The translations under genes and the position numbers were made by a program. A DNA stretch of 64,000 bases, taken from Escherichia coli. GTDB lineage: Bacteria; Pseudomonadota; Gammaproteobacteria; Enterobacterales; Enterobacteriaceae. Below the pieces are notes generated by a model. The model was given only the letters and a program-made list of their open reading frames with translations. It was not told the DNA's origin and did not search any database. The stretch lies in the NCBI RefSeq assembly GCF_003334305.1, contig NZ_QOWS01000021.1; one strand, written 5' to 3'. Below are positions 15,873-26,269 of the stretch, piece after piece (position 1 is the first letter of the stretch; every line of letters starts with the position of its first letter).

Positions 15873-16136
15873 ACGGCCTCCCTAACGGAAACCGCAGAAT
15901 GCAGAAAATCGCAGGTGCATTTCTGCATCTGTGACAAGGTGATGAGTTCAGATTGTGGTCGCATTTAAGTCCCCTTAAATGCGCAGAAGTCACCGGAGTT
16001 GTTCAGGCTCCGATGAGAGGATTATGGCGGATTGATTACGATAAATCAAAACTATCTTGAAGCCAAAACAGTGATCTTCGCTTTAAAAACCTTGTATACT
16101 TTCACCTAATCACAGCCAGAACTATGGATCTAACCA

Positions 16137-16514
16137 ATGACCAACAAAGAAAACAAAGATAAATATATTAACAAGTTCAAGAAAGAGCTTTCAAAATATA
16201 TACAACCAACTGCTGGAGTGGACATTCAATTATTTAACTCTAAGGATGGTGGTGGTGTAATTAAAGCCACTTTGAATAGAAGTGGAAAAAGAAAATCATC
16301 TATTGCAGGTAATTTTACTAAATTAGGTGAGGCAATTACCTCGAGTGGGCAGAGGGTTTTTGGTGGTGATCTATCAAATGTAAATTTTTACGGAACAAAT
16401 ACGATTTTTGATGGAGATACAATATTTTTAATTAAATCACCTGATTCAGAGGAGTGGTCATCACAAAAAGCTTCCAAAGACGTAGAGGGCATCGTATTTG
16501 GAGGGAAAAAATGA
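16137..16514 (+). CDS. Hypothetical soluble protein (125 aa), moron gene 1
   Basis: ORF MTNKENKDKYINKFKKELSKYIQPTAGVDIQLFNSKDGGGVIKATLNRSGKRK...; AT-rich; opposite strand to neighbours; stop overlaps next gene start (ATGA); no family recognised. Confidence 0.55.
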   Translation: MTNKENKDKYINKFKKELSKYIQPTAGVDIQLFNSKDGGGVIKATLNRSGKRKSSIAGNFTKLGEAITSSGQRVFGGDLSNVNFYGTNTIFDGDTIFLIKSPDSEEWSSQKASKDVEGIVFGGKK

Positions 16515-16939
16515 TTAACATTACTACTAAGGATGGCACTCAAGTCAGTGGTGAAGTAAGAGATCTAGTAATTCTTCTTGAAACTGATGGAAAAACGGTG
16601 TCTGATTATTTGCAGCCAATCCCTCCCAAAAAAGATACACACTGGAGCATGATTTTCATTCCGGTAGCAATTTATATACTACTTAATCTTGTATACATTA
16701 TTGCTCACCCATTATTTCCTGAAAAATATCTAAAAACATCAACATCTATATTTCTATTCATTTCCTTCATATTAAGTGCAATAGTAGCATATTTTGTTTT
16801 CCATAAGCATAAATCTGCCACTCTATCCATATGCAGCTTAGTGTTCTTAGTGTTAATTGTAGGTGCTAACGTAGGGTTTATCAGTTACAGCGACCTAACA
16901 CAAAAAGCGACGCAAAAATTAGATAGTTTGTCTAAATAA
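16511..16939 (+). CDS. Hypothetical membrane protein (142 aa, three predicted TM helices), moron gene 2
   Basis: ATG at 16511 preceded by GGAGGG SD; MINITTKDGTQVSGEVRDLVILLETDGK... then hydrophobic segments WSMIFIPVAIYILLNLVYIIAHPLF, IFLFISFILSAIVAYFVF, LSICSLVFLVLIVGANVGFISY. Confidence 0.6.
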   Translation: MINITTKDGTQVSGEVRDLVILLETDGKTVSDYLQPIPPKKDTHWSMIFIPVAIYILLNLVYIIAHPLFPEKYLKTSTSIFLFISFILSAIVAYFVFHKHKSATLSICSLVFLVLIVGANVGFISYSDLTQKATQKLDSLSK

Positions 16940-17017
16940 TTATGTTGCCATGCGAAGTATGCATGGCTGCATGTCTGCCTTCCATTTAAAATGGGCTAAG
17001 ACCTATAACCCTAAATA

Positions 17018-17731
17018 TTATTCTTTATTATCTTCTTTACCACTTCGCACCATCCCGTTCGACTTGTTGCGGTTGTACTTCGCCTGAAGCAGCTGGATTG
17101 GCGTCGGGCCATGCTCGGCAGCCGGTGCTGCAATCGCCCGGCGCACAGGCGGTACTGGTTTGCCCTCGGTGACGCGCCTCTCCCACATGTCCAGCAGATC
17201 GCCGGCTTCACGCGCCAGCTCACCATGCGTTAACTGGCGCTCTGTGCTGCGGTGGCGCAGTTCGACGCAGATGTGGTACATGACAGGCTGTGACCACGGG
17301 AAATGCTCGCTGGAAGTGAATTCGAAGGAACGATTACGCCAATCCCAGTATTCGGTTATGACTTGGTCAACAGTGATACCTAACGCCCCGCCACTCTGCT
17401 TACACCACGCTACGAACTGGCCGGGCGACGGCAGGAATGGTCGCTCCTGTCGGCGGGCCACGCGCATTCCGGCGTTAACCTGTTCCATTGTGGTGATCCC
17501 GTTTTCCCGGAAAGCCAGAACCCACTGGCGGCGAATTTCGTTCAGTTCGTTCTGGTCACGGTTAGCCAGGCTCGCAGGGAAAGTTGCCAGCAACTGGCTG
17601 AATACACCGTTGATGATCTGCGCTACCTGCTGTACCTGCGGCTTTTCGTCGTACTGTTCCGGCATGTTGTTGGCGATCCGGCGCATCTGCTCACGGTCAA
17701 AGTTAACCATCTGTGCGGCGATGTTTTTCAT
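17018..17731 (-). CDS. P: Replication protein P-like (DnaB helicase loader), lambda-like N-terminus with divergent C-terminal half
   Basis: 237 aa MKNIAAQMVNFDREQMRRIANNMPEQYDEKPQVQQVAQIINGVFSQLLATFPASLANRDQ... matches lambda P over the N-terminal ~110 aa; remainder differs from my recollection of lambda P. Confidence 0.8.
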   Translation of the reverse strand: MKNIAAQMVNFDREQMRRIANNMPEQYDEKPQVQQVAQIINGVFSQLLATFPASLANRDQNELNEIRRQWVLAFRENGITTMEQVNAGMRVARRQERPFLPSPGQFVAWCKQSGGALGITVDQVITEYWDWRNRSFEFTSSEHFPWSQPVMYHICVELRHRSTERQLTHGELAREAGDLLDMWERRVTEGKPVPPVRRAIAAPAAEHGPTPIQLLQAKYNRNKSNGMVRSGKEDNKE

Positions 17732-18657
17732 AAATCCACCCCGTAAATCCAGTCAGTGTTCGTCAGGTCGAGTTTTGGTTTGCCGGCTGTCACGCCAGCC
17801 TGTTGCTTGTTTCGGTTGATTTCGAGCTGGGTCCACTTGTCGCGGAGTTTGGCCGGACTCAGCACGTTACCGGACCAGAAGTTGTCCTGGCAGGCCCAGC
17901 GAAACAGTACACACATGTCGCGGTGGTTACGTCCATCACGTTCACGCATCAGACGGATATCGTTAGCCCACCCTGCAAAATTCGGTTTTCTGGCTGATGG
18001 TGCGATAGTCTTCACCATGTCAAACATCCACTCTGCGGCGGTCAGGTCTTCTGCTGTCCCCCACTTGCTGCCGTTCTGAATCGCAGCATCCGCTTTCACC
18101 ACAGGAAGGTCGTTTTCTGGCAGGTCAGAGGATTCGCCAGAATTCTCTGACGAATAAGGTTTTATATTGTCTTTTGTTAGTTTGTCTTTTGTGTTTACCG
18201 GATTCGGGTAAGTGCCTTTACCTGATTTGGGTAAACTTTTCTTACCTGATTCAGGTAAATTTACCTCTTTCAGGTAAACTTTATTTTTCTTACCTGATTC
18301 GGGTAATGTTGACCATTCACTGACCACATTATTAATGCCTATATTCCGCCCGCTCTGAATAAAAATCCCACGCTTTACCAGAACACTTTTTGCAGCAGAA
18401 CACTTGTGCGGCAATATCCCGGTCAACTCGGAAAGTTGCTCGTTGCTCACCCAATCCAGTTTTTTATTAAAGCCATATGTTTTGCGCATGACAGCCAGGA
18501 AGACCAGAAGCTGGTGCTGTGTTAATCCGGCCAGCATTACAGCTTCCAGCAACTCATTTGCAATGCGCGTATAACCATCATCGAGATCTGCCACGCGCGG
18601 CTCCTTTTGTGCCGCATCCGGCACAGGAAAATTGAATATCTCAGCAGTGTTTGCCAT
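17728..18657 (-). CDS. O: Replication initiator O-like
   Basis: ORF 17728..18747 trimmed to ATG at 18657 with GGGAGG SD (MANTAEIFNFPVPDAAQ...); C-terminus ...ANDIRLMRERDGRNHRDMCVLFRWACQDNFWSGNVLSPAKLRDKWTQLEINRNKQQAGVTAGKPKLDLTNTDWIYGVDL matches lambda O; iterons inside the gene. Confidence 0.85.
   Translation of the reverse strand: MANTAEIFNFPVPDAAQKEPRVADLDDGYTRIANELLEAVMLAGLTQHQLLVFLAVMRKTYGFNKKLDWVSNEQLSELTGILPHKCSAAKSVLVKRGIFIQSGRNIGINNVVSEWSTLPESGKKNKVYLKEVNLPESGKKSLPKSGKGTYPNPVNTKDKLTKDNIKPYSSENSGESSDLPENDLPVVKADAAIQNGSKWGTAEDLTAAEWMFDMVKTIAPSARKPNFAGWANDIRLMRERDGRNHRDMCVLFRWACQDNFWSGNVLSPAKLRDKWTQLEINRNKQQAGVTAGKPKLDLTNTDWIYGVDL
18195..18307. repeat. Replication origin iterons (five ~18-bp direct repeats) inside the O gene, with adjacent AT-rich tract at 18130..18194
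   Basis: tttaccggattcgggtaa, tttacctgatttgggtaaa, cttacctgattcaggtaaa, tttacctctttcaggtaaa, cttacctgattcgggtaat; encode the repeated LPESGKK peptide in O. Confidence 0.8.
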
Positions 18658-18743
18658 AATTCCTCCCGCAATGAGTGTGTTACGATTTGCACCTGAAAGT
18701 CGGTTCTGTTCCCGCAGACCGACTTTCGCCATTTTTAAACCTG

Positions 18744-19289
18744 TCATATTGCCCCCAACATGGTGGTAACCATCGCCATCAATGGACCAGCCAGATCCGG
18801 GTCCACACGAAACATCGACACAATACCTTCACTCATCTCCTTCAGTTTCTGGTGGCGTGGTGCGTTGAGAATGACAGCCTGTTTTGCCTCACTGAGTTCC
18901 TTTTCCATTTCAGCCAACCGAGTCATGAAGCTATCCTGCTCAACCAGGTAACCGCGATATTCCAGCGGTAGTACCGCCAGAATTGCCGGGGTCAGTTCAC
19001 GCACGTTATTTCGGTATTTTTCAGAATCGAATTTGTTATCGAGGAAGCGGAACAGCTTCTGGCGTGCACGGCTGACATCATCAGGGAAATCGATGGTGCC
19101 GCCGCCCTGTGCTCGATACTCATTCACAATGAGTGCGGCAACAACATCCTGATTATCTGCAGCCGACCAGGCGCGGACGGCATCACGGATTTTTTCGTGG
19201 CCTGGCACCTGTTTTGTTTGAGAACGATTTATCACCGCAGTCGGGCTAAATCCGCTAGTCTGTTGGTATGTAAGTGGTTGCATAGTCAT
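18744..19289 (-). CDS. Hypothetical regulatory protein at the cII position (possibly YdaT-like)
   Basis: 181 aa MTMQPLTYQQTSGFSPTAVINRSQTKQ...NEYRAQGGGTIDFPDD...; placement directly downstream of cro-like gene; family assignment uncertain. Confidence 0.5.
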   Translation of the reverse strand: MTMQPLTYQQTSGFSPTAVINRSQTKQVPGHEKIRDAVRAWSAADNQDVVAALIVNEYRAQGGGTIDFPDDVSRARQKLFRFLDNKFDSEKYRNNVRELTPAILAVLPLEYRGYLVEQDSFMTRLAEMEKELSEAKQAVILNAPRHQKLKEMSEGIVSMFRVDPDLAGPLMAMVTTMLGAI

Positions 19290-19313
19290 TGCCTTATCAG
19301 TTAACGCCGCAGT

Positions 19314-19541
19314 TTAGGCGGCAGAATTACTCGCGTTAAACAATGGTGCGAGGTCGGGACGAATATCTGCTGGTTTAATCTTTCCACCAGTGGCTGAGAC
19401 AATTTTCATTACATAGCGGGCATCAATTCCGCCACCGTGTAGCCAACGCCAAACTGTGGGTTGGGCTACACCGCATAGATCTGCCAGTCGTTTTTGACTA
19501 CCTGTAATACTGATTGCGAGTTGAATGGTTTGATTTGTCAT
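19314..19541 (-). CDS. Cro-like HTH repressor (YdaS/Cro family)
   Basis: ORF 19314..19547 (TTG) trimmed to ATG at 19541: MTNQTIQLAISITGSQKRLADLCGVAQPTVWRWLHGGG...; divergent from cI; AGGA SD. Confidence 0.75.
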   Translation of the reverse strand: MTNQTIQLAISITGSQKRLADLCGVAQPTVWRWLHGGGIDARYVMKIVSATGGKIKPADIRPDLAPLFNASNSAA

Positions 19542-19572
19542 TATCAATTCCTATTGGTATTGCAATGAATGA

Positions 19573-19601
19573 ATAATAGCAATGAGTATTAACCCAAGCA
19601 A
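19573..19601 (-). promoter_or_regulatory. Candidate PR promoter (-35 TTGCTT, 17-bp spacer, -10 TATTAT on minus strand) overlapping OR operator repeats
   Basis: Minus-strand ttgctt gggttaatactcattgc tattat upstream of cro-like gene; AGCAAT/ATTGCT repeats overlap. Confidence 0.55.
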
Positions 19602-19615
19602 TAGCAAAACGTGTT

Positions 19616-19643
19616 TTGACCATCAATACGCAAGCGTATAAAT
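19616..19643 (+). promoter_or_regulatory. Candidate PRM promoter (-35 TTGACC, -10 TATAAAT region) giving a leaderless or near-leaderless cI mRNA
   Basis: ttgacc at 19616..19621 and tataaat at 19637..19643; cI ATG at 19652 has no SD, as for lambda PRM/cI. Confidence 0.45.
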
Positions 19644-19651
19644 TAAAACTT

Positions 19652-20344
19652 ATGAAAAAAGAAACTCTTGCTGATCGCTTAAATCTAGCGATGGAACAAT
19701 CTGGAATGTCTCAAGGCGCTCTTGCAAAGGCGTCTGGCGTAGCTCAACCCACAATCTGGAGACTGACAAGCGGCAACGCGCGCGGCTCAACAAAAATTGT
19801 TGAAATAGCTAATGCATTGGGTGTTCGAACAGAATGGCTCTCTTCAGGCATAGGCCCGATGAGAAATGACGGTCAACAATCAGGGAAGCCTGCTGTCAGC
19901 CATTCCAAATACTTCAAAATTGACGTTCTTGATATAGAAGTCAGTGCCGGGCCGGGTGTAATCAACCGTGAGTTTGTAGAAGTTCTACGCTCGGTTGAAT
20001 ACTCGTTTGACGATGCTCGTCACATGTTCGATGGCAGGAAGGCGGAAAATATCCGCATCATTAACGTGCGTGGTGACAGCATGTCAGGAACGATCGAACC
20101 AGGTGATCTGCTGTTCGTTGATATCACGGTTAAATCTTTCGACGGTGATGGTATCTATGCGTTTCTGTATGACGACACCGCCCATGTAAAACGCCTGCAA
20201 ATGATGAAGGATAAGCTGCTGGTTATCTCTGATAACAAGAGCTACTCACCGTGGGACCCGATCGAGAAAGACGAGATGAACCGCGTGTTCATCTTCGGGA
20301 AAGTCATCGGGAGCATGCCGCAGACATATAGAAAGCATGGGTAG
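19652..20344 (+). CDS. cI: CI-type prophage repressor (N-terminal HTH, C-terminal S24 LexA-like autopeptidase)
   Basis: ORF 19616..20344 trimmed to ATG 19652: MKKETLADRLNLAMEQSGMSQGALAKASGVAQPTIWRL... and C-terminal ...VRGDSMSGTIEPGDLLFVD...HVKRLQ (Ser/Lys dyad motifs). Confidence 0.88.
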   Translation: MKKETLADRLNLAMEQSGMSQGALAKASGVAQPTIWRLTSGNARGSTKIVEIANALGVRTEWLSSGIGPMRNDGQQSGKPAVSHSKYFKIDVLDIEVSAGPGVINREFVEVLRSVEYSFDDARHMFDGRKAENIRIINVRGDSMSGTIEPGDLLFVDITVKSFDGDGIYAFLYDDTAHVKRLQMMKDKLLVISDNKSYSPWDPIEKDEMNRVFIFGKVIGSMPQTYRKHG

Positions 20345-20473
20345 AAATCAGAACAAAATTATGCACTTCGCTTTTCAGCTTACTGTAGTAAGGCAATAAA
20401 TTAGGCTTGACGTTAGCTATCAGGTGCACAACAATAATTGTTGAATAATAGGTTTTTTTAACTAGGTGATAAC

Positions 20474-21613
20474 ATGGCAGCGGTTGAATTTCAATTGTCT
20501 AGGAAGATGATTGATTGGATAGCAAATTCTCAAGGAGTTTCTATCGAAACTCTTGCTGACCAAGTCATGCCCAAAAAGATTAATAAATTTCTTAACGGAG
20601 TGGTAAGTAAATCCGCAGCAGAAAAACTGGCAAAAATTGGAGGAATCCCTTTCGGTTTTTTATTTCTTGAAACGCCACCAACTCCAGCCAAACCCAAGAT
20701 CCCTGACTTAAGGCAAGCTATAAATAGCCGTGAGTTAGGAAAAGATTTTTTTGATGTTTACTATGATATAGAATATAAACTTGAGTGGTACAAAGACTAT
20801 TTAAGAGAAAATGGTAATGATGATCCACTCGATTTTATTGGTAAATTTAAATTTAATAGAAAATTAAATTATAAGGTTGTTGCTACAGACATAGCAAACA
20901 CAATACATTTTGATATACAAAAAGAGATAAAAAATGTCACTTTTGAGAGCTATTTTTCTAAAGTGGCAAAACTAATAGAAGACACTGGCGTATTAGTTTT
21001 CAAGAATGGTGTTGTGGGTAATAATAATAAAAGAAAACTTGACACGCGAGAGTTTCGTGGTTTCTGTATATCTGATAGCGTTGCTCCGATCATTTTTGTA
21101 AATAGCTCGGACGCGTTATCTGCGCAGGTATTTACATTATTTCATGAGGTGGCTCATCTTTGGCTTGGAGTCGATGGAGTCTCTGGGTGGGACACAGAAA
21201 AAAACATAGAATCTTTTTGTAATAAAGTTGCTGCTGAAATCTTAATGCCTGATAATCTCTTCAAATCTTTCTGGCTTAATGCATCCAGCGATAATAATTA
21301 TTATCGAGTAAAAGAGGTTTCTAAGTTATTTAAGGTTAGTGATTTCGCTTGTGCAATCAAAGCGTTACAATTAGATTTGATAGAAAGAAACACTTTGGAG
21401 ATAATTAAAGATCAAGCTTACAATAAGCCCAAAAAAGAATCCAATGGTGGTTCTTTCTTTAACACATTACCTGTTCGTAACAGTCCAAAACTTACGAATA
21501 TAATAATTTCCAAAGCAATGTCTCAACAATTACCATTAAGGGAAGCAGGCGTACTGCTAAATGTAAAAGCAGATACAGTTGTTGAATTTTATAAAAAACG
21601 AGAATCTCTATGA
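20474..21613 (+). CDS. HTH (XRE-like) domain fused to ImmA/IrrE-family zinc metallopeptidase (COG2856/DUF955-like), 379 aa
   Basis: AGGTGA SD 4 nt upstream; N-terminal HTH-like segment (SIETLADQVMPKKINKFLNG...AEKLAKIGGIP); HExxH motif in FTLFHEVAHLWLG and downstream E...AAEILMP motif typical of ImmA/IrrE peptidases; AT-rich. Confidence 0.75.
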   Translation: MAAVEFQLSRKMIDWIANSQGVSIETLADQVMPKKINKFLNGVVSKSAAEKLAKIGGIPFGFLFLETPPTPAKPKIPDLRQAINSRELGKDFFDVYYDIEYKLEWYKDYLRENGNDDPLDFIGKFKFNRKLNYKVVATDIANTIHFDIQKEIKNVTFESYFSKVAKLIEDTGVLVFKNGVVGNNNKRKLDTREFRGFCISDSVAPIIFVNSSDALSAQVFTLFHEVAHLWLGVDGVSGWDTEKNIESFCNKVAAEILMPDNLFKSFWLNASSDNNYYRVKEVSKLFKVSDFACAIKALQLDLIERNTLEIIKDQAYNKPKKESNGGSFFNTLPVRNSPKLTNIIISKAMSQQLPLREAGVLLNVKADTVVEFYKKRESL

Positions 21614-22122
21614 TTCATAATGGAAAATTCTTAATTGATAGTAATGTCTTCATAGAGGCAAAAAACTTTGCATATAACTTCAATTATTGCAAAATATTTT
21701 GGGATTTTCTTCTCGCTTTACACATTAATGGTCTGATTTATAGCATTAATGCTGTAAAAAAAGAACTATGTGCAAAAGATGATCCATTGTGTAAATGGAT
21801 TAAAGAAGAGTTACCATCATCATTCTTCGAAGATGAGCATAGTTCAATAGAAAATTATGCAAAGTTAATAAATTGGTCAACTAAATTAGATGTTACCGAA
21901 AAGGCAAAGTTTGATTTTGCAAGCCATGAAAAAGCAGATGCTTTTTTAATAGCCCATGCGATGACACATGGATATACTATTATTACCCATGAGAAACCAT
22001 CCGGTGGCAAACCTAAAAAAAGAATAATGATCCCGGATGCTGCTGCTTCTCACGGCGTTAAGACATTAACACTATATGAATTTCTTCCAAGATACGCTAG
22101 TCATAATTTTTCTTTGAAATAA
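21610..22122 (+). CDS. PIN-like (DUF4411-type) putative nuclease, 170 aa
   Basis: Start overlaps upstream stop (ATGA); N-terminal FLIDSNVFIEA resembles the first acidic PIN strand; ADAFLIAHAMTHGYTIITHEK resembles a later PIN motif; AT-rich; domain call from memory of DUF4411. Confidence 0.65.
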   Translation: MIHNGKFLIDSNVFIEAKNFAYNFNYCKIFWDFLLALHINGLIYSINAVKKELCAKDDPLCKWIKEELPSSFFEDEHSSIENYAKLINWSTKLDVTEKAKFDFASHEKADAFLIAHAMTHGYTIITHEKPSGGKPKKRIMIPDAAASHGVKTLTLYEFLPRYASHNFSLK

Positions 22123-22127
22123 AACGT

Positions 22128-22154
22128 CCCGGCCACCGTGCCGGGTTTTCTTTT
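22128..22154 (+). terminator. Rho-independent terminator after the two-gene cassette
   Basis: cccggccaccgtgccggg hairpin followed by ttttctttt immediately after the stop at 22122. Confidence 0.75.
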
Positions 22155-22276
22155 GCCTCCCCTCATCACACACACCGTTCAAAAAACCACCACAACCCCG
22201 CTTCAGTTATCGCTATGCGATGCAAGTCACAAAATTAATTCTTTTTGCTATCAAATATTTAATATCAAAACACATC

Positions 22277-22323
22277 TAGCAATAGCAATAAGTATTGATA
22301 TCATCAATAGCAATAGCTATTAT
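22277..22323 (+). promoter_or_regulatory. Candidate PL promoter (-35 TTGATA, 17-bp spacer, -10 TATTAT) with OL operator repeats
   Basis: ttgata tcatcaatagcaatagc tattat at 22295..22323; AGCAATAGCAAT repeats shared with the cro-cI intergenic region. Confidence 0.6.
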
Positions 22324-22396
22324 CACCATGTCGCAACAACACAACGATACGGCAATCACCTGATTCACCGTTGCGATGACCGCTTAGATCCGCAGC

Positions 22397-22807
22397 TTGA
22401 ATTTCAGCAGGCTCCGGGGAGTGCGAGGGGTGAAGCGGACGCGTGAACGTCGGTGTGACCAGCTGAAATCAACTCAACACTTCATACCTCAGTCGCTTCA
22501 ACGAGGCGGCTTAGTTATGACAACCGGCGGCCATCCACCGCCTGAATACGCGCAGAAGTCTTTATATGTTCAGCAGCCCAGCTTACGGGCAGGAGTTTTT
22601 ATGGTTCATCAACATTACGGAACGCAGACCGTTAATCGCGGTGCGGTCATGCCAGGAATGCTGGTCAAACACAAAGATGGTACCTGGACTGCATCAGCTA
22701 ATTTACGCGGACGGCTTTATCTGCATCGCGGCATCGAGCGCACTTATACCCGTGATTTGCTCGTAGAAGTTTTTCTCGACGGACGCGGTAACGGCCTGAA
22801 TCACTAA
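22397..22807 (+). CDS. Hypothetical protein, first ORF of PL operon (Arg-rich N-terminus; possible N-like or Kil/CIII-region protein)
   Basis: ORF with TTG start; N-terminus ...RLRGVRGVKRTRERR...; no confident homology recalled. Confidence 0.3.
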   Translation: MNFSRLRGVRGVKRTRERRCDQLKSTQHFIPQSLQRGGLVMTTGGHPPPEYAQKSLYVQQPSLRAGVFMVHQHYGTQTVNRGAVMPGMLVKHKDGTWTASANLRGRLYLHRGIERTYTRDLLVEVFLDGRGNGLNH

Positions 22808-22883
22808 CCCCCCTTTCCTGTTTTCCTAATCAGCCTGGCATTTCGCAGGCGATATTTTCACAGCCATTTTCAGGAGTTCAGCC

Positions 22884-23180
22884 ATGAACGCTTATTACAT
22901 TCAGGATCGTCTTGAGGCTCAGAGCTGGGCACGTCACTACCAGCAGATCGCCCGTGAAGAGAAAGAGGCAGAACTGGCAGACGACATGGAAAAAGGTCTT
23001 CCACAGCACCTGTTTGAATCACTCTGTATCGATCATTTGCAACGCTGCGGGGCCAGCAAAAAAGCCATTACCCGTGCGTTTGATGACGATGTTGAGTTTC
23101 AGGAGCGCATGGCAGAACACATCCGGTACATGGTTGAAACCATTGCTCACCACCAGTTTGATATTGATTCAGAGGTATAA
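22884..23180 (+). CDS. gam: Gam (RecBCD inhibitor), short form
   Basis: 98 aa [52 protein letters not shown]...; matches lambda Gam; upstream in-frame sequence also resembles the long-form N-terminus. Confidence 0.92.
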
Positions 23181-23185
23181 AACGG

Positions 23186-23971
23186 ATGAGTACAGCACTC
23201 GCAACGCTGGCAGGAAAGCTGGCTGAACGTGTCGGCATGGATTCTGTCGACCCACAGGAACTGATCACCACTCTTCGCCAGACGGCATTTAAAGGTGATG
23301 CCAGCGATGCGCAGTTCATCGCATTGTTGATCGTCGCCAACCAGTACGGCCTTAATCCGTGGACGAAAGAAATTTACGCCTTCCCTGATAAGCAGAACGG
23401 CATCGTTCCGGTGGTGGGCGTTGATGGCTGGTCCCGCATCATCAATGAAAACCAGCAGTTTGATGGCATGGACTTTGAGCAGGACAATGAATCCTGTACA
23501 TGCCGGATTTACCGCAAGGACCGTAATCATCCGATCTGCGTTACCGAATGGATGGATGAATGCCGCCGCGAACCATTCAAAACTCGCGAAGGCAGAGAAA
23601 TCACGGGGCCGTGGCAGTCGCATCCCAAACGGATGTTACGGCATAAAGCCATGATTCAGTGTGCCCGTCTGGCCTTCGGATTTGCTGGTATCTATGACAA
23701 TGATGAAGCCGAGCGCATTGTCGAAAATACTGCATACACTGCAGAACGTCAGCCAGAACGCGACATCACTCCGGTTAACGATGAAACCATGCAGGAGATT
23801 AACACTCTGCTGATCGCCCTGGATAAAACATGGGATGACGACTTATTGCCGCTCTGTTCCCAGATATTTCGCCGCGACATTCGCGCATCGTCAGAACTGA
23901 CACAGGCCGAAGCAGTGAAAGCTCTTGGATTCCTGAAACAGAAAGCCACTGAGCAGAAGGTGGCAGCATGA
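23186..23971 (+). CDS. bet: Bet (Red-beta single-strand annealing protein)
   Basis: 261 aa [48 protein letters not shown]...; matches lambda Bet. Confidence 0.93.
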
Positions 23972-24648
23972 TACCGGACATTATCCTGCAGCGTACCGGG
24001 ATCGACGTGAGAGCTGTCGAACAGGGGGATGATGCATGGCACAAATTACGGCTCGGCGTCATCACCGCTTCAGAAGTTCACAACGTGATAGCAAAACCCC
24101 GCTCCGGAAAGAAATGGCCTGACATGAAAATGTCCTACTTCCACACCCTGCTTGCCGAGGTTTGCACCGGTGTGGCTCCGGAAGTTAACGCTAAAGCACT
24201 GGCCTGGGGAAAACAGTACGAGAACGACGCCAGAGCCCTGTTTGAGTTTACTTCCGGCGTGAATGTTACTGAATCCCCGATCATCTATCGCGACGAAAGT
24301 ATGCGTACCGCCTGCTCTCCGGATGGTTTATGCAGTGACGGCAACGGCCTTGAACTGAAATGCCCGTTTACCTCCCGGGATTTCATGAAATTCCGGCTCG
24401 GTGGTTTCGAGGCCATAAAGTCGGCTTACATGGCCCAAGTGCAGTACAGCATGTGGGTGACGCGAAAAGATGCCTGGTACTTTGCCAACTATGACCCGCG
24501 CATGAAGCGTGAAGGCCTGCATTATGTCGTGATTGAGCAGGATGAAAAGTACATGGCGAGTTTTGACGAGATGGTGCCGGAGTTCATCGAAAAAATGGAC
24601 GAGGCACTGGCTGAAATTGGTTTTGTATTTGGGGAGCAATGGCGATGA
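23968..24648 (+). CDS. exo: Exo (Red-alpha 5'-3' exonuclease)
   Basis: 226 aa [50 protein letters not shown]...; matches lambda Exo. Confidence 0.93.
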
Positions 24649-24827
24649 AGCATCCTCACGATAATATCCGGGTAGGTGCGATCACTTTCGTCTACTCCGT
24701 TACAAAGCGAGGCTGGGTATTTCCCGGCCTTTCTGTTATCCGAAATCCACTGAAAGCCCAGCGGCTGGCTGAGGAGATAAATAATAAACGAGGGGCTGTA
24801 TGCACAAAGCATCTCCTGTTGAGTTAA
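24639..24827 (+). CDS. Hypothetical small protein (62 aa)
   Basis: ORF in PL operon between exo and xis; no family recognised. Confidence 0.4.
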
Positions 24828-24991
24828 GAACGAGCATTGAGATGGCACATAGCCTTGCTCAAATTGGAGTCAGGTTTGTGCCAATACCAGCAGAAACAGA
24901 CGAAGAATTTCATACGTTAGCCACATCCCTTTCACAAAAGCTGGAAATGATGGTGGCGAAAGCAGAAGCAGATGAGAGAGACCCGGTATGA
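24800..24991 (+). CDS. Hypothetical small protein (63 aa)
   Basis: ORF in PL operon; no family recognised. Confidence 0.4.
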   Translation: MHKASPVELRTSIEMAHSLAQIGVRFVPIPAETDEEFHTLATSLSQKLEMMVAKAEADERDPV

Positions 24992-25067
24992 CAGCCACGG
25001 AATGCATTTTTCTGGCAGCGGGCTTCATATTCTGTGTGCTTATGCTTGCCGACATGGGACTTGTTCA

Positions 25068-25289
25068 ATGACACCTCAGCAGGAAAACGCCCTTCGCAGC
25101 ATTGCCCGTCAGGCTAATTCTGAAATCAAAAAAGCCAGACAGCAGTTTCCGGATAAAAACGTCGATGACATTTGCCGTAGCGTACTGAAGAAGCACCGTG
25201 AAACGGTAACGCTGATGGGATTCACACCGACTCATTTAAGCCTGGCGATCGGCATGTTAAACGGCGTCTTTAAGGAACGGTTAACATGA
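25068..25289 (+). CDS. Hypothetical small protein (73 aa)
   Basis: ORF 24972..25289 trimmed to internal ATG (MTPQQENALRSIARQANSEIKKARQQF...). Confidence 0.4.
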   Translation: MTPQQENALRSIARQANSEIKKARQQFPDKNVDDICRSVLKKHRETVTLMGFTPTHLSLAIGMLNGVFKERLT

Positions 25290-25381
25290 AAAGCAAAATC
25301 ATCAGGGAGCTACAGGCTCCTTTTTTATTGTTCGCATTCATCCTCAAGCGTATTAACCAACAATTCAGGGATTAATGGAAG

Positions 25382-25600
25382 ATGGCAGACATCATTGATT
25401 CAGCATCAGAAATCGAAGAATTACAGCGCAATACAGCAATAAAAATGCGTCGTCTGAACTACCAGACTGTATCCGCAACTCATTGTTGTGAGTGTGGCGA
25501 TCCGATAGATGAGCGAAGACGCCTGGCTGTTCAGGGTTGTCGGACTTGTGCAAGTTGCCAGGAGGAGATCGAACTTAAGAACAAACAATGGGGACTGTGA
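25382..25600 (+). CDS. TraR/DksA-family C4 zinc-finger protein
   Basis: 72 aa with CxxC...CxxC (HCCECGDPIDERRRLAVQGCRTCASCQEE). Confidence 0.65.
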   Translation: MADIIDSASEIEELQRNTAIKMRRLNYQTVSATHCCECGDPIDERRRLAVQGCRTCASCQEEIELKNKQWGL

Positions 25601-25647
25601 TGGCCTCAAAGCAGCAAATTTCAACATCGTCCAACTGAGGTGTAAAA

Positions 25648-25926
25648 ATGTTCAGAATCATTTTTCCTAACACCTGGTACGTCGACCACCACGGCACTCC
25701 CTGCAAAATCCTGCGTTCTACCCACAACAAAGTTCACTACATCCGAAAAGGCAGAACATGTATCGCCAGCATGTTCCGCTTTAATCATGACTTTGAACCT
25801 GTGAATAAAGCTGATGCAGATCAGATAGCAGAAGAGATCGAAACGGCAGAACACATTAAGAAGTTACGTGACATGCGTTCAAAAAGCAGAGGTAACCATG
25901 GAATCATACAGCCTCACACTCGATGA
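25648..25926 (+). CDS. Hypothetical protein (92 aa)
   Basis: ORF upstream of xis-like gene; no family recognised. Confidence 0.4.
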   Translation: MFRIIFPNTWYVDHHGTPCKILRSTHNKVHYIRKGRTCIASMFRFNHDFEPVNKADADQIAEEIETAEHIKKLRDMRSKSRGNHGIIQPHTR

Positions 25927-26269
25927 GGCCTGTCAGTTTCTTAAGATATCCAGACCAACCGCCACCAACTGGATACGAACAGGCCGCCTACAGGCAACAC
26001 GTAAAGATCCAACCAAGCCAAAATCTCCTTACCTCACAACACGGCAAGCCTGCATTGCGGCGCTTCAGTCTCCGCTGCATACTGTCCAGGTGAGCGCGGG
26101 TGATGGCATAACAGAGGAAAGAAAATGTCACTCTTCCGCAGAAATGAAATATGGTATGCCTCGTATTCGCTCCCGGGCGGGAAACGAATTAAGGAATCTC
26201 TTGGCACAAAGGACAAGCGGCAAGCTCAGGAGTTGCACGACAAGCGAAAAGCAGAACTCTGGCGAGTAG
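25898..26269 (+). CDS. Excisionase-like protein (Xis/AlpA-type HTH); reading frame continues into int
   Basis: [38 protein letters not shown]... directly upstream of int; unusually long overlap with int (about 145 nt), so 3' end uncertain. Confidence 0.45.

Follow-up and report, generated by a model that had tools for sequence, protein, structure and literature searches.

The window analysed here, a stretch of 64,000 nucleotides, is an apparently complete lambdoid prophage of Escherichia coli at the argU site (tRNA-Arg), and the region studied is its immunity region, which lies opposite to the orientation of the standard lambda map. Its switch appears to be of the ordinary lambda-style on/off kind, with a single repressor that has matching sites at both early promoters, and between OR and OL lie the repressor gene and an exchangeable two-gene cassette that is probably anti-phage. 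We consider it very likely that the whole is explained by a lambda-type switch, a leaderless PRM transcript through to the terminator, and an acquired toxin-antitoxin (TA)-like cassette (Table 1). Every sequence feature named in a preliminary description of this DNA was found again in its place.

Table 1. Features of the immunity region along the window
Feature	Position	Strand	Basis and remarks
cII-position gene, YdaT family, 181 aa	18744..19289	-	ORF; RefSeq: 'toxin YdaT domain-containing protein'
cro, 75 aa, first gene of the PR operon	19314..19541	-	phrog_35 transcriptional repressor, E 9e-24
Candidate fourth operator CAATACCAATAGGAATTG, cro leader over SD	19545..19562	-	OL-only matrix, rank 2 in window (16.8)
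PR	19573..19601	-	-35 TTGCTT 19601..19596, 17-nt spacer, -10 TATTAT 19578..19573; read directly
OR1 TAATAGCAATGAGTATTA	19574..19591	+	pattern and matrix; dyad 6/9; kept in 12 loci
OR2 CAATAGCAAAACGTGTTT	19599..19616	+	pattern and matrix; identical in Klebsiella, SE1 and BTP1 phages; abuts PRM -35
OR3 CAATACGCAAGCGTATAA	19624..19641	+	hand reading; over PRM spacer and 3 nt of its -10
PRM candidate TTGACC-17-TAAATT	19616..19644	+	9/12 consensus; ends 7 nt ahead of cI ATG
cI, 230 aa	19652..20344	+	phrog_4, E 5e-69; 434-like HTH and LexA/UmuD-type S24 domain
Cassette promoter TTGACG-17-AACAAT	20407..20443	+	9/12; palindrome CAACAATAATTGTTG (20429-20443) over -10
Cassette gene 1	20474..21613	+	HTH and ImmA/IrrE (Peptidase_M78); predicted antitoxin/regulator
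Cassette gene 2, 170 aa	21610..22122	+	DUF4411 PIN-like; predicted nuclease toxin
Terminator ending the immunity transcript (timm analogue)	22128..22155	+	CCCGGCCACCGTGCCGGG then TTTTCTTTTG
OL3 candidate TGATAGCAAAAAGAATTA	22236..22253	-	inverted; 44 bp from OL2; OR-only matrix rank 3
Immunity-specific OL/PL block, 94 bp	22238..22331	+	PhiR5_1 unrelated here, near-identical on either side
OL2 CAATAGCAATAAGTATTG	22280..22297	+	overlaps PL -35 by 3 nt; pattern and matrix
PL TTGATA-17-TATTAT	22295..22323	+	10/12 consensus; directed into kil-gam-bet-exo
OL1 CAATAGCAATAGCTATTA	22305..22322	+	over PL spacer and 5 nt of -10; dyad 7/9; pattern and matrix
kil (FtsZ inhibitor), first gene 3' of PL	22517..22807	+	phrog_294, E 1e-38

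Operator sites at both early promoters

A short repeat, AGCAAT/ATTGCT, had been described as common to the cro-cI spacer and a second region at 22277..22322. AGCAAT does occur in both (19578 and 19597; 22278, 22284 and 22309), but ATTGCT is absent from the + strand there and is simply the reverse complement of the same motif, and with 28 + strand copies in the window the hexamer by itself is unremarkable. The actual element is an 18-bp dyad operator, YAATASNNA·TNNSTATTR, of which AGCAAT is the inner part, with a start-to-start spacing of 25 bp on both the OR and the OL side. The original claim of matching sites on both sides holds, with the dyad instead of the hexamer as the unit.

The 8-mer AATAGCAA has five copies in the 64 kb on both strands, a count that is not significant alone (2.76 expected; 13 of 100 shuffles reach five), and four of these copies are arranged as two pairs with a spacing of exactly 25 bp (19575/19600 and 22281/22306). 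Perfect matches to the 17-nt pattern YAATAGCAANNNNTRTT are confined to 19574, 19599, 22280 and 22305, and when up to two mismatches are allowed it gives 16 matches versus 5.95 +/- 2.6 in shuffles, none of which (0/100) reaches 16. For cross-validation, a matrix built from one operator cluster was scored on the rest of the window (~128,000 positions). In this position-matrix search, a check proposed in the preliminary description, the matrix of each cluster retrieves the other cluster as its top three: the three OR sites return 22280, 22305 and 22236 (- strand), with OL2 as the top match (17.3 versus a null maximum of 16.8), and OL1 and OL2 return 19574, 19545 (- strand) and 19599.

Dyad symmetry reaches 6-7 of 9 in five of the seven sites (null P(>=6) = 0.02) and is poor in OR2 and OL3 (3/9 each). 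The matrix score of OR3 (17.1) is circular because this site is among the five seed sites; its support comes from a dyad of 6/9, from a position exactly in the 25-bp register of OR1 and OR2, and from its conservation among relatives. The OL3 candidate is inverted and not in the 25-bp register; it is identical in eight E. coli relatives and falls within the block replaced in the heteroimmune phage PhiR5_1. The site at 19545..19562, with a dyad of 7/9, is shared by the Klebsiella phage and every E. coli relative, and may act as an operator. The earlier account is thereby refined to three sites on each side and a possible fourth over the cro ribosome-binding site.

The operators are arranged alike on the two early promoters: OR1 spans the PR spacer and extends over 5 nt of the -10, OR2 reaches 3 nt into the -35, and OL1 and OL2 are placed in the same way on PL. 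Lambda PR has this same overlap with OR1 and OR2. The near-consensus promoter that had been reported beneath the second repeat cluster is PL itself (TTGATA-17-TATTAT, 22295-22323, 10/12), while PR is omitted by the consensus scan because its -35 TTGCTT matches at only 3/6 positions. Promoter-like matches are not enriched in the AT-rich stretch (12 found versus 10.7 expected), and the promoter calls therefore rest on position and operator overlap, not on consensus score. Downstream of PL, kil matches NCBIfam NF008465 with E 4e-17 and 61.9 bits, under the curated cut-off of 92 bits, and its start in RefSeq is 22601.

That OR and OL would be served by one repressor, as had been suggested, is strongly supported by the comparison of loci. 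We compared the twelve loci that encode a cI with the N-terminal domain of the window type: the window, the E. coli phages PhiR70_1, 4A7, Perceval, PhiR30_1 and PhiR68_2, three E. coli prophages, one Klebsiella phage, and Salmonella SE1 and BTP1. In all twelve, the cro-cI spacer holds two or three matching sites (the OR triplet is retained across loci, except that at the scan threshold BTP1 shows a pair), and the early-left genes are preceded by an OL pair with 25-bp spacing (19-25 bp in the Klebsiella phage), with at least seven different cargos between the two. The window, the Klebsiella phage and BTP1, which were those checked, have the same recognition helix, QPTIWRL. The five named E. coli lambda-like phages (4A7 and Perceval belonging to Bievrevirus) are 95-98% identical to the window in cro, cI, OR, terminator, OL and kil-gam-bet, and differ in the genes of the cI-terminator slot, which in such relatives are a hypothetical gene plus ASCH, a transmembrane protein, or a DUF6932-like pair.

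A natural swap is seen in PhiR5_1. Its flanks are shared (90-91% identical), and it exchanges jointly the 94 bp corresponding to window 22238-22331, OR, cro, and cI residues 1-45 including the recognition helix; its own motif of 19 nt (95% complementary) is found in both its OR and its OL. The sites, their geometry and their covariation with the recognition helix are established in the present analysis, and we infer from them that cI binds on both sides. It is extremely improbable that the repeats are a chance likeness of AT-rich DNA (31% and 40% GC in the two regions), or sites of the cassette HTH protein or a host nucleoid protein, as even though the hexamer is common and the 8-mer count not significant, the cross-validated ranks, the identical register on both sides, the retention of sites in phages lacking the cassette and the co-exchange with the recognition helix all speak against it.

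Transcription of the cassette and the start of cI

The cassette occupies the rexAB slot. Its location within the immunity region, as previously described, is supported by breakpoints at the cI stop (20344) and at the conserved terminator (22128) upstream of OL; this terminator is near-invariant across seven phages with differing cargo and forms the right-hand homology breakpoint. With a GC content of 32-34% versus 50% for the window, the cassette is horizontally acquired cargo. Of 5426 complete E. coli genomes, 33 have the cassette, and likewise 33 have the whole cro-to-OL region; the cassette is absent from all 50,697 phage records searched. Behind unrelated repressors, homologous cassettes fill the same slot in prophages of Klebsiella and Enterobacter. 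The interval from cI to N, occupied in lambda by rexAB, is known as a hotspot of mosaicism (PMC8585504).

Expression of the cassette in the lysogen, also proposed beforehand, appears plausible, since the sequence between cI and gene 1 has no predicted terminator and the cassette has a conserved promoter of its own. Cassettes of 53-78% protein identity in Trabulsiella, Enterobacter and Klebsiella keep the hexamers and the 17-nt spacing of this promoter, with a variable spacer sequence. It is unlikely, though likelier than the other rival readings, that the cassette is transcribed only from this probably autorepressed promoter (20407-20435), outside the PRM transcript, and that its location reflects an insertion hotspot and not regulatory coupling. 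Such autonomy would fit the conservation of TTGACG-17-AACAAT across four genera, with Trabulsiella providing a non-immunity context, the perfect 7-1-7 palindrome over the -10, and the 129-nt spacer and foreign GC of a self-contained moron. However, besides the lack of a predicted terminator after cI, the sole strong terminator lies 3' of gene 2 and is conserved across cargos, and in BTP1 cI and bstA form one operon with a single transcription start site (TSS) and high expression in lysogens, RNA-seq reads spanning the spacer between them (PMC7067206). Moreover, both routes may coexist. In lambda, PRM and an internal rexB promoter do so. In our preferred reading the PRM transcript most likely runs through the cassette to the conserved terminator just before OL, the two taking the position of rexA-rexB and timm in lambda.

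The preliminary description had further noted that the cI ATG at 19652, which is also the RefSeq/PGAP start, has no Shine-Dalgarno sequence (SD) and sits close to a promoter. Indeed, the 20 nt ahead of it pair with the anti-SD at -0.2 kcal/mol, as compared to -3.0 to -8.4 for nine other real starts, and the PRM candidate ends 7 nt before; cro has an SD, AGGA, 7 nt ahead of its ATG. Neither PRM hexamer varies among the relatives from E. coli, Klebsiella and Salmonella, and the 7-nt interval from -10 to ATG is constant in length and variable in sequence. By its geometry, the PRM transcript would begin on the cI AUG or no more than 1-2 nt from it, and the cI mRNA would thus be leaderless.

Less likely again, the operators are real and cI is not leaderless, through an upstream transcript start or translation from TTG 19616, with translation then depending on an AU-rich SD-less leader and ribosomal protein S1. 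The TTG would add an in-frame extension of 12 codons that runs without a stop up to the ATG, both in the window and in its Klebsiella, SE1 and BTP1 relatives, the GenBank records of PhiR30_1 and BTP1 start cI there, and a -10-like AATAAT lies at 19572-19577 on the + strand. However, this TTG is the first half of the sole promoter-like match passing the scan and is itself without SD (-1.9 kcal/mol), and the last three codons of the extension vary non-synonymously among relatives while operators and hexamers are fixed. The conserved -10-to-ATG length, the similar arrangement in PhiR5_1 (TACATT, 6 nt, ATG), the PGAP start, and an HTH fold that begins at residue 6-8, as in the 434 repressor, likewise favour the ATG, and leaderless repressors have been shown experimentally in lambda and CP-933P (PMC8630535).

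Proposed circuit and related systems

By analogy with lambda, we infer a circuit in which cI dimers would bind the 18-bp dyads at 25-bp spacing. On OR1 and OR2, cI would switch off PR and thereby cro, the cII gene of YdaT type and the replication genes O and P, and on OL1 and OL2 it would switch off PL, that is kil, gam, bet and exo. On OR2, cI would adjoin the PRM -35 in the position of lambda cI self-activation; taking the A of the ATG as PRM +1, the centre of OR2 lies ~2.5 bp farther away than in lambda, and the activation geometry is therefore not guaranteed. Binding to OR3 over the PRM -10 would give negative autoregulation, possibly assisted by OL3 via a 2.7-kb OL-OR loop. Cro, with a recognition helix nearly that of cI (GVAQPTVWRW versus GVAQPTIWRL in an HTH alignment of E 5e-9), would compete for the same sites. 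Finally, RecA-stimulated cleavage at Ala99-Gly100 would lead to prophage induction; these residues, Ser143 and Lys180 are present, and cI matches the structures of 434 repressor (E 2e-5) and UmuD' (E 1e-4) in the PDB.

The window shares with lambda the gene order and divergent promoters, three operators per side with OR1/OL1 over the -10 and OR2/OL2 3 nt into the -35, OR2 abutting the PRM -35 and OR3 over PRM, a -10 that sits 6-7 nt before an SD-less ATG, a repressor S24 domain with an Ala-Gly site, accessory genes between cI and a pre-OL terminator, and an OL-OR distance of ~2.4-2.7 kb. In contrast to lambda, whose operators are 17-bp sites spaced 23-24 bp, the window has the 18-bp dyad YAATA...TATTR at 25 bp, a DNA-binding domain nearer to that of 434 repressor, a YdaT-family protein in the cII position, no N-like gene between PL and kil, ImmA/DUF4411 in place of RexAB as cargo, an inverted OL3 44 bp from OL2, and possibly a fourth site over the cro SD.

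A close counterpart is immC of the P22-like Salmonella phages BTP1, ST104, SE1 and ST160, where cI residues 1-100 are 78% identical to the window, the recognition helix is identical, OR1-OR3 and both PRM hexamers are near-identical, the OL pair is again 25 bp apart, and cargo lies directly 3' of cI. These phages differ in their P22-like backbone, an N-like antiterminator after PL, a cargo of BstA or of DUF3024 plus a ParA-like gene, and in having no detectable site over the cro SD. The CP-933P prophage (Sp12; paaR2-paaA2-parE2 and ydaS-ydaT) also has a TA module 3' of its repressor within the immunity region, and operator repeats in the divergent spacer and at PL; its repressor mRNA is leaderless, as determined by 5' RACE and N-terminal sequencing, and YdaT was shown to be a CII analogue (PMC8630535). 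However, its repressor PaaR2 has no sequence similarity to lambda CI (PMC8630535), its toxin is ParE2 and not a PIN-like candidate, and it is a cryptic prophage whereas that of the window looks complete.

For the cassette itself, the nearest systems are RosmerTA and the three-component HTH-DUF955(ImmA)+PIN-like TA modules, in which the gene of an ImmA/IrrE peptidase with an N-terminal HTH adjoins and overlaps a small toxin-like gene, as in the window, and DUF4411.1 is located 3' of fused HTH-DUF955 genes (PMC10440598, PMC5499597). Besides the boundaries of the cassette, its domain content is established here: gene 1 matches Pfam PF06114 (E 3e-13) and phrog_2439 (E 3e-76) and carries HEVAH at residue 224, and gene 2, whose start shares 4 nt (ATGA) with the gene 1 stop, matches PF14367 (E 1.5e-37). 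Homologues of both proteins occur together in PDB entry 9vzy (chain A for gene 1, E 8e-7; chain D, 'DUF4411 family protein', for gene 2, E 7e-6). In PADLOC, gene 1 weakly matches CapP and RmrA (the latter partial, best E 6e-8), and gene 2 matches none of the models, RmrT included. DUF4411 is a predicted TA toxin (PMC5499597), for which the searchable literature holds no demonstration of toxicity or defence, and antitoxins with ImmA domains have diverse toxins as partners, PIN-like ones among them (PMC10440598, PMC5499597). The likeliest role of the cassette is that of a Rosmer-like module of toxin-antitoxin or abortive-infection type, which would benefit the lysogen.

Operators, promoters and the start of cI

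Judged by its sequence, the element is a lambdoid switch of the textbook type. The divergent cro and cI genes are separated by a spacer that holds several copies of one dyad operator over two divergent promoters. Beyond cI, the operator recurs as a second cluster at PL, which is backed by cross-validated matrices and by a heteroimmune block swap. The layout is that of the lambda immunity region with the map direction reversed, the place of rexA-rexB being taken by a two-gene cassette. In E. coli A7, accession NZ_CP028767.1, the chromosome matches positions 19300-22450 at 100% identity, and this copy lies inside a complete lambda-like prophage adjoining intD and tRNA-Arg (the DLP12/argU site). 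Further accessory genes of the prophage in the window (10658-10951, 12728-13810 and 16137-16939) are iss, encoding a bor-like serum-survival lipoprotein, an ompC-family porin gene flanked by the lysis genes and by quuD, which codes for a Q-like antiterminator, and two hypothetical plus-strand genes between ybcN and P.

Features of the immunity region and its surroundings (window positions)
Feature	Position	Strand	Remarks
Replication genes P and O, YdaT-family gene		minus	YdaT-family gene in cII position
cro	19314-19541	minus	
PR	-35 19601..19596, -10 19578..19573	minus	TTGCTT-17-TATTAT
OR1	19574-19591		
OR2	19599-19616		
OR3	19624-19641		
PRM, candidate	19616-19644		TTGACC-17-TAAATT
cI	19652-20344	plus	
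Two-gene cassette	20474-22122	plus	
Terminator	22128		after cassette, ahead of OL
OL3, candidate	22236-22253		inverted
OL2	22280-22297		
OL1	22305-22322		
PL	22295-22323		TTGATA-17-TATTAT
kil, gam, bet, exo		plus	beyond terminator

The preliminary description had paired OR with OL through copies of AGCAAT, which do sit where it placed them. This hexamer by itself is frequent in the window. Of the 8-mer AATAGCAA, the 64 kb contain five copies, four of which fall into two pairs of exactly 25 bp spacing, one in the cro-cI spacer and the other at 22281/22306. A 17-nt degenerate pattern is matched without mismatch only at 19574, 19599, 22280 and 22305 in a scan of the window. To avoid circularity, we used two separate matrices, one made from the OR sites only and one from the OL sites only. 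The three best matches of the OR matrix in the rest of the window were 22280, 22305 and 22236 (minus strand), with a top score of 17.3 where 100 Markov-generated null sequences reached at most 16.8, and those of the OL matrix were 19574, 19545 (minus strand) and 19599. The matrix search across the window that had been proposed as a check thus recovers each cluster from the other. The sites are 18-bp dyads with the half-site Y-A-A-T-A-S-N-N-A, and five of the seven are symmetric at 6-7 of 9 positions (null P(≥6) 0.02). No description of the operator sequence of this immunity group was found in the searchable literature.

Besides these sites, a candidate fourth operator, CAATACCAATAGGAATTG (19545-19562, minus strand), lies past the predicted PR start and over the Shine-Dalgarno sequence of cro. 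In the E. coli phage relatives 4A7 and Perceval and in GN03590, both ends of this dyad covary (C..G to T..A) and YAATA...TATTR is retained. Lambda has no counterpart of such an operator-like site over the cro ribosome-binding site. A remote possibility is that the candidate is a genuine extra layer of PR control.

At PR and PL alike, the promoter-proximal operator spans the spacer plus five bases of the -10 element, and the second operator shares three bases (TTG) with the -35 element, which is how OR1 and OR2 are arranged at lambda PR. At PRM, OR2 borders the -35 element, and OR3 extends over the spacer into the first bases of the -10 element. Consensus scores were discarded as promoter evidence since the scan counts in the AT-rich region were not above chance (12 promoter-like matches vs 10.7 expected); we instead assigned the promoters by position, operator overlap and conservation. 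Reading by eye also turned up TTGC-N7-TTGC at 19278-19292, where the YdaT-type cII gene begins, in the orientation of cI. It is similar to the CII site of lambda (TTGC-N6-TTGC) but differently spaced, and lambda CII is no relative of the activator in this prophage. From PL to kil (22330-22516) there is no N-like antiterminator gene; a GC-rich leader, about 190 nt long and kept among relatives, makes up the interval. Scanning 16000-26000 against Rfam at E ≤ 1 returned nothing but a spurious miRNA match, and the leader folds no better than shuffled sequences (z -1.3), so that neither result points to a put-like antitermination RNA.

For cI, the proposed ATG at 19652 indeed lacks a Shine-Dalgarno sequence and lies close to the candidate promoter: the 20 nt ahead of it pair with the anti-Shine-Dalgarno sequence at -0.2 kcal/mol, compared to -3.0 to -8.4 kcal/mol at nine other real starts, and the -10 element TAAATT stops 7 nt short of it. 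Among relatives, this 7-nt spacer varies (AAAACTT, TGAAATT, GAATATT) at constant length, while operators and hexamers are fixed; in the heteroimmune phage PhiR5_1, TACATT is followed by 6 nt and then ATG. RefSeq also places the start at 19652, and the 434-like fold of cI begins at residues 6-8. Against this stands an in-frame TTG at 19616, which some records give as the cI start; it is part of the PRM -35 element and has no Shine-Dalgarno sequence either. Based on the missing Shine-Dalgarno sequence, the constant distance from -10 to ATG, the RefSeq start and the start of the fold, a leaderless cI mRNA is a prediction that is well supported at the sequence level. The lambda repressor mRNA is known to be leaderless. 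In addition, a leaderless repressor mRNA has been demonstrated for PaaR2 of CP-933P (PMC8630535).

Repressor, operators and their exchange among relatives

cI, accession WP_001295669.1, combines an N-terminal HTH with a C-terminal S24 autocleavage domain, in which A99-G100, S143 and K180 are all present, and the Cro helix GVAQPTVWRW nearly equals that of cI. The DNA encoding the two recognition helices (19449-19472 and 19736-19759) forms a 24-nt inverted repeat with 83% complementarity, because the motif GVAQPT(V/I)WR is common to both proteins.

In ten phage records, cro-cI and the OL flank are 95-98% identical to the window at a query coverage of just 43-44%, as the middle part differs: homology runs up to the stop codon of cI (20340-20351) and picks up again at the terminator (22114-22128). 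In an alignment across the terminator-OL flank of related phages, the terminator, OL3, OL2, OL1 and PL are kept in six phages carrying different cargo. PhiR5_1 is near-identical on both flanks of this alignment, and 22238-22331 is replaced by unrelated sequence. Divergence in this phage extends to cro, OR and residues 1-45 of cI, which include the recognition helix (VSQAAIQKIE vs VAQPTIWRLT in the window), and its own motif AAAACAAC..GTTTT is present in both its OR and its OL. Inside common flanks, operator specificity therefore changes along with the recognition helix of the repressor. In the Klebsiella phage ST11-VIM1phi8.2 and the Salmonella phage BTP1, the DNA is only about 75% identical and the recognition helix is identical. 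Together with Salmonella phage SE1, they retain OR1, OR2 and the PRM hexamers, OR3 (under the scan threshold in BTP1) and the OL pair at a spacing of 25 bp (19-25 bp in the Klebsiella phage), and the same pattern is seen in three more E. coli prophages with the cargos DUF6932, ASCH and SIR2. This natural module swapping is the strongest argument at hand for cI and Cro reading these sites and supports the interpretation that OR and OL are read by one repressor. The underlying observation of matching repeats in the two regions is confirmed. A rearranged OL was seen in E. coli YZLc1-3 (locus L012, 6916-8826), which has the same cI and OR and a SIR2-family gene as cargo: beyond its two sites, at 8784 and 8809, the sequence differs until the conserved leader is reached.

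OR together with the cI N-terminus was found in 719 of 5426 complete E. coli genomes, compared to only 63 with a megablast match to the 94-bp OL block. Since all three OR-positive loci taken from the OR match list carry OL sites, this gap is probably due to the short query and to sequence variants. The immunity group is common to the Salmonella phages BTP1, ST104 and SE1 and to Klebsiella phages.

The cassette between cI and the terminator

The cassette occupies an accessory slot that reaches from the cI stop to the terminator before OL and harbours variable genes in cI orientation. Its homology breakpoints, 20344 and 22128, enclose the cassette and thereby place it inside the immunity region, as had been suggested. 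The terminator is conserved across cargos, of which there are at least seven alternatives, and mosaicism is known to concentrate in the cI-to-PL interval (PMC8585504). With a GC content of 32-34%, compared to 50% for the window, the cassette is absent from 50,697 phage records and present in 33 of the 5426 complete E. coli genomes, the same number as for the whole cro-to-OL region; it also occurs on one large replicon listed among plasmids. In one of the 33, E. coli ATCC 43886 (NZ_CP024256.1, 2450571-2453109), it is broken by IS1.

The same gene pair is found in six further loci of three other genera, Trabulsiella, Enterobacter and Klebsiella. Homologous cassettes with 53-78% protein identity use the same slot in Enterobacter and Klebsiella prophages, behind unrelated short repressors and opposite ydaS-ydaT, which indicates that different immunity regions have received this cargo at the same position; in Trabulsiella prophages they have a different accessory position. 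The Enterobacter asburiae and Klebsiella prophages in question are Rac-like (loci L016, 3402-5649, and L017-L019, 3243-5649), and the repressors directly upstream of the cassette have 143-155 aa and are non-S24. All homologous cassettes retain TTGACG-17-AACAAT ahead of gene 1, so the cassette brings a promoter of its own. The stretch from cI to gene 1 contains no predicted terminator, and in BTP1, cI and the downstream cargo form one operon with a single TSS (PMC7067206). Taken together, expression in the lysogen by read-through, from the cassette's own promoter or both is likely.

Gene 1 encodes a protein of 379 aa with an XRE-like N-terminus and, as the upstream partner, a Peptidase_M78 (ImmA/IrrE) domain (PF06114, E 3e-13) with HEVAH at residue 224. 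Gene 2, whose start overlaps the gene 1 stop by 4 nt, encodes a DUF4411 PIN-like protein of 170 aa (PF14367, E 1.5e-37). The DUF4411 gene thus lies directly downstream of a fused HTH-DUF955 (ImmA) gene, as in the HTH-DUF955/DUF4411.1 TA module predicted by Matelska et al. 2017 (PMC5499597), and PDB entry 9vzy holds homologues of both proteins. A literature search returned no paper for 9VZY and 9VZZ, and no experiments on DUF4411 are reported in the searchable literature. The architecture is also like that of RosmerTA (PMC10440598), defined in PADLOC and DefenseFinder by the HTH-M78 peptidase antitoxin RmrA and a recognised toxin partner, RmrT. In PADLOC, thirteen RmrA models match gene 1 weakly (best E 6e-8, about 30 bits), as does CapP, and gene 2 has no family match at E ≤ 0.01 and hence no standing as a recognised RmrT partner. 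The pair is therefore Rosmer-like in architecture and not a catalogued defence system. As a side observation, cI (19661-19674) and gene 1 (20546-20559) share the 14-mer GAAACTCTTGCTGA exactly, which codes for ETLAD where the HTH region of each begins, and the cI N-terminus matches the profile of the gene 1 family (phrog_2439, E 1e-7).

We regard it as very improbable that the cassette is wired into the switch, be it by gene 1 acting on cI or Cro or by its binding to palindromes at 20429-20443 and 19788-19802. In ICEBs1, ImmA cleaves ImmR, and by analogy the HTH-ImmA/IrrE protein may act on cI or Cro. As to the second route, the 15-bp near-palindrome CAACAA(A/T)AATTGTTG has only two copies in the 64-kb window (0.04 expected). 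One covers the -10 element of the cassette promoter; the other falls within the cI codons that specify the invariant TKIVE(I) segment, at the point where homology to PhiR5_1 breaks. As a conserved cassette operator, the copy within cI was rejected, because homologous cassettes keep only the CAACAAT half and not the right arm, their upstream conservation being confined to the -35 and -10 hexamers. With the right arm unconserved and the cI copy in an invariant coding segment, regulatory cross-talk is unsupported. If the wiring did exist, phage sensing or toxin release would be coupled to prophage induction or cI transcription.

Our data leave the understanding of such switches unchanged and add no new principle; what they provide is a sequence-level operator and promoter map for a common E. 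coli immunity group, which permits the prediction of heteroimmunity among its prophages. The ImmA/IrrE-DUF4411 pair is a further, uncharacterised cargo of the known cI-to-PL slot, and since homologous pairs turn up again in this slot downstream of unrelated repressors, the PIN-like family is a reasonable candidate for prophage-encoded defence.
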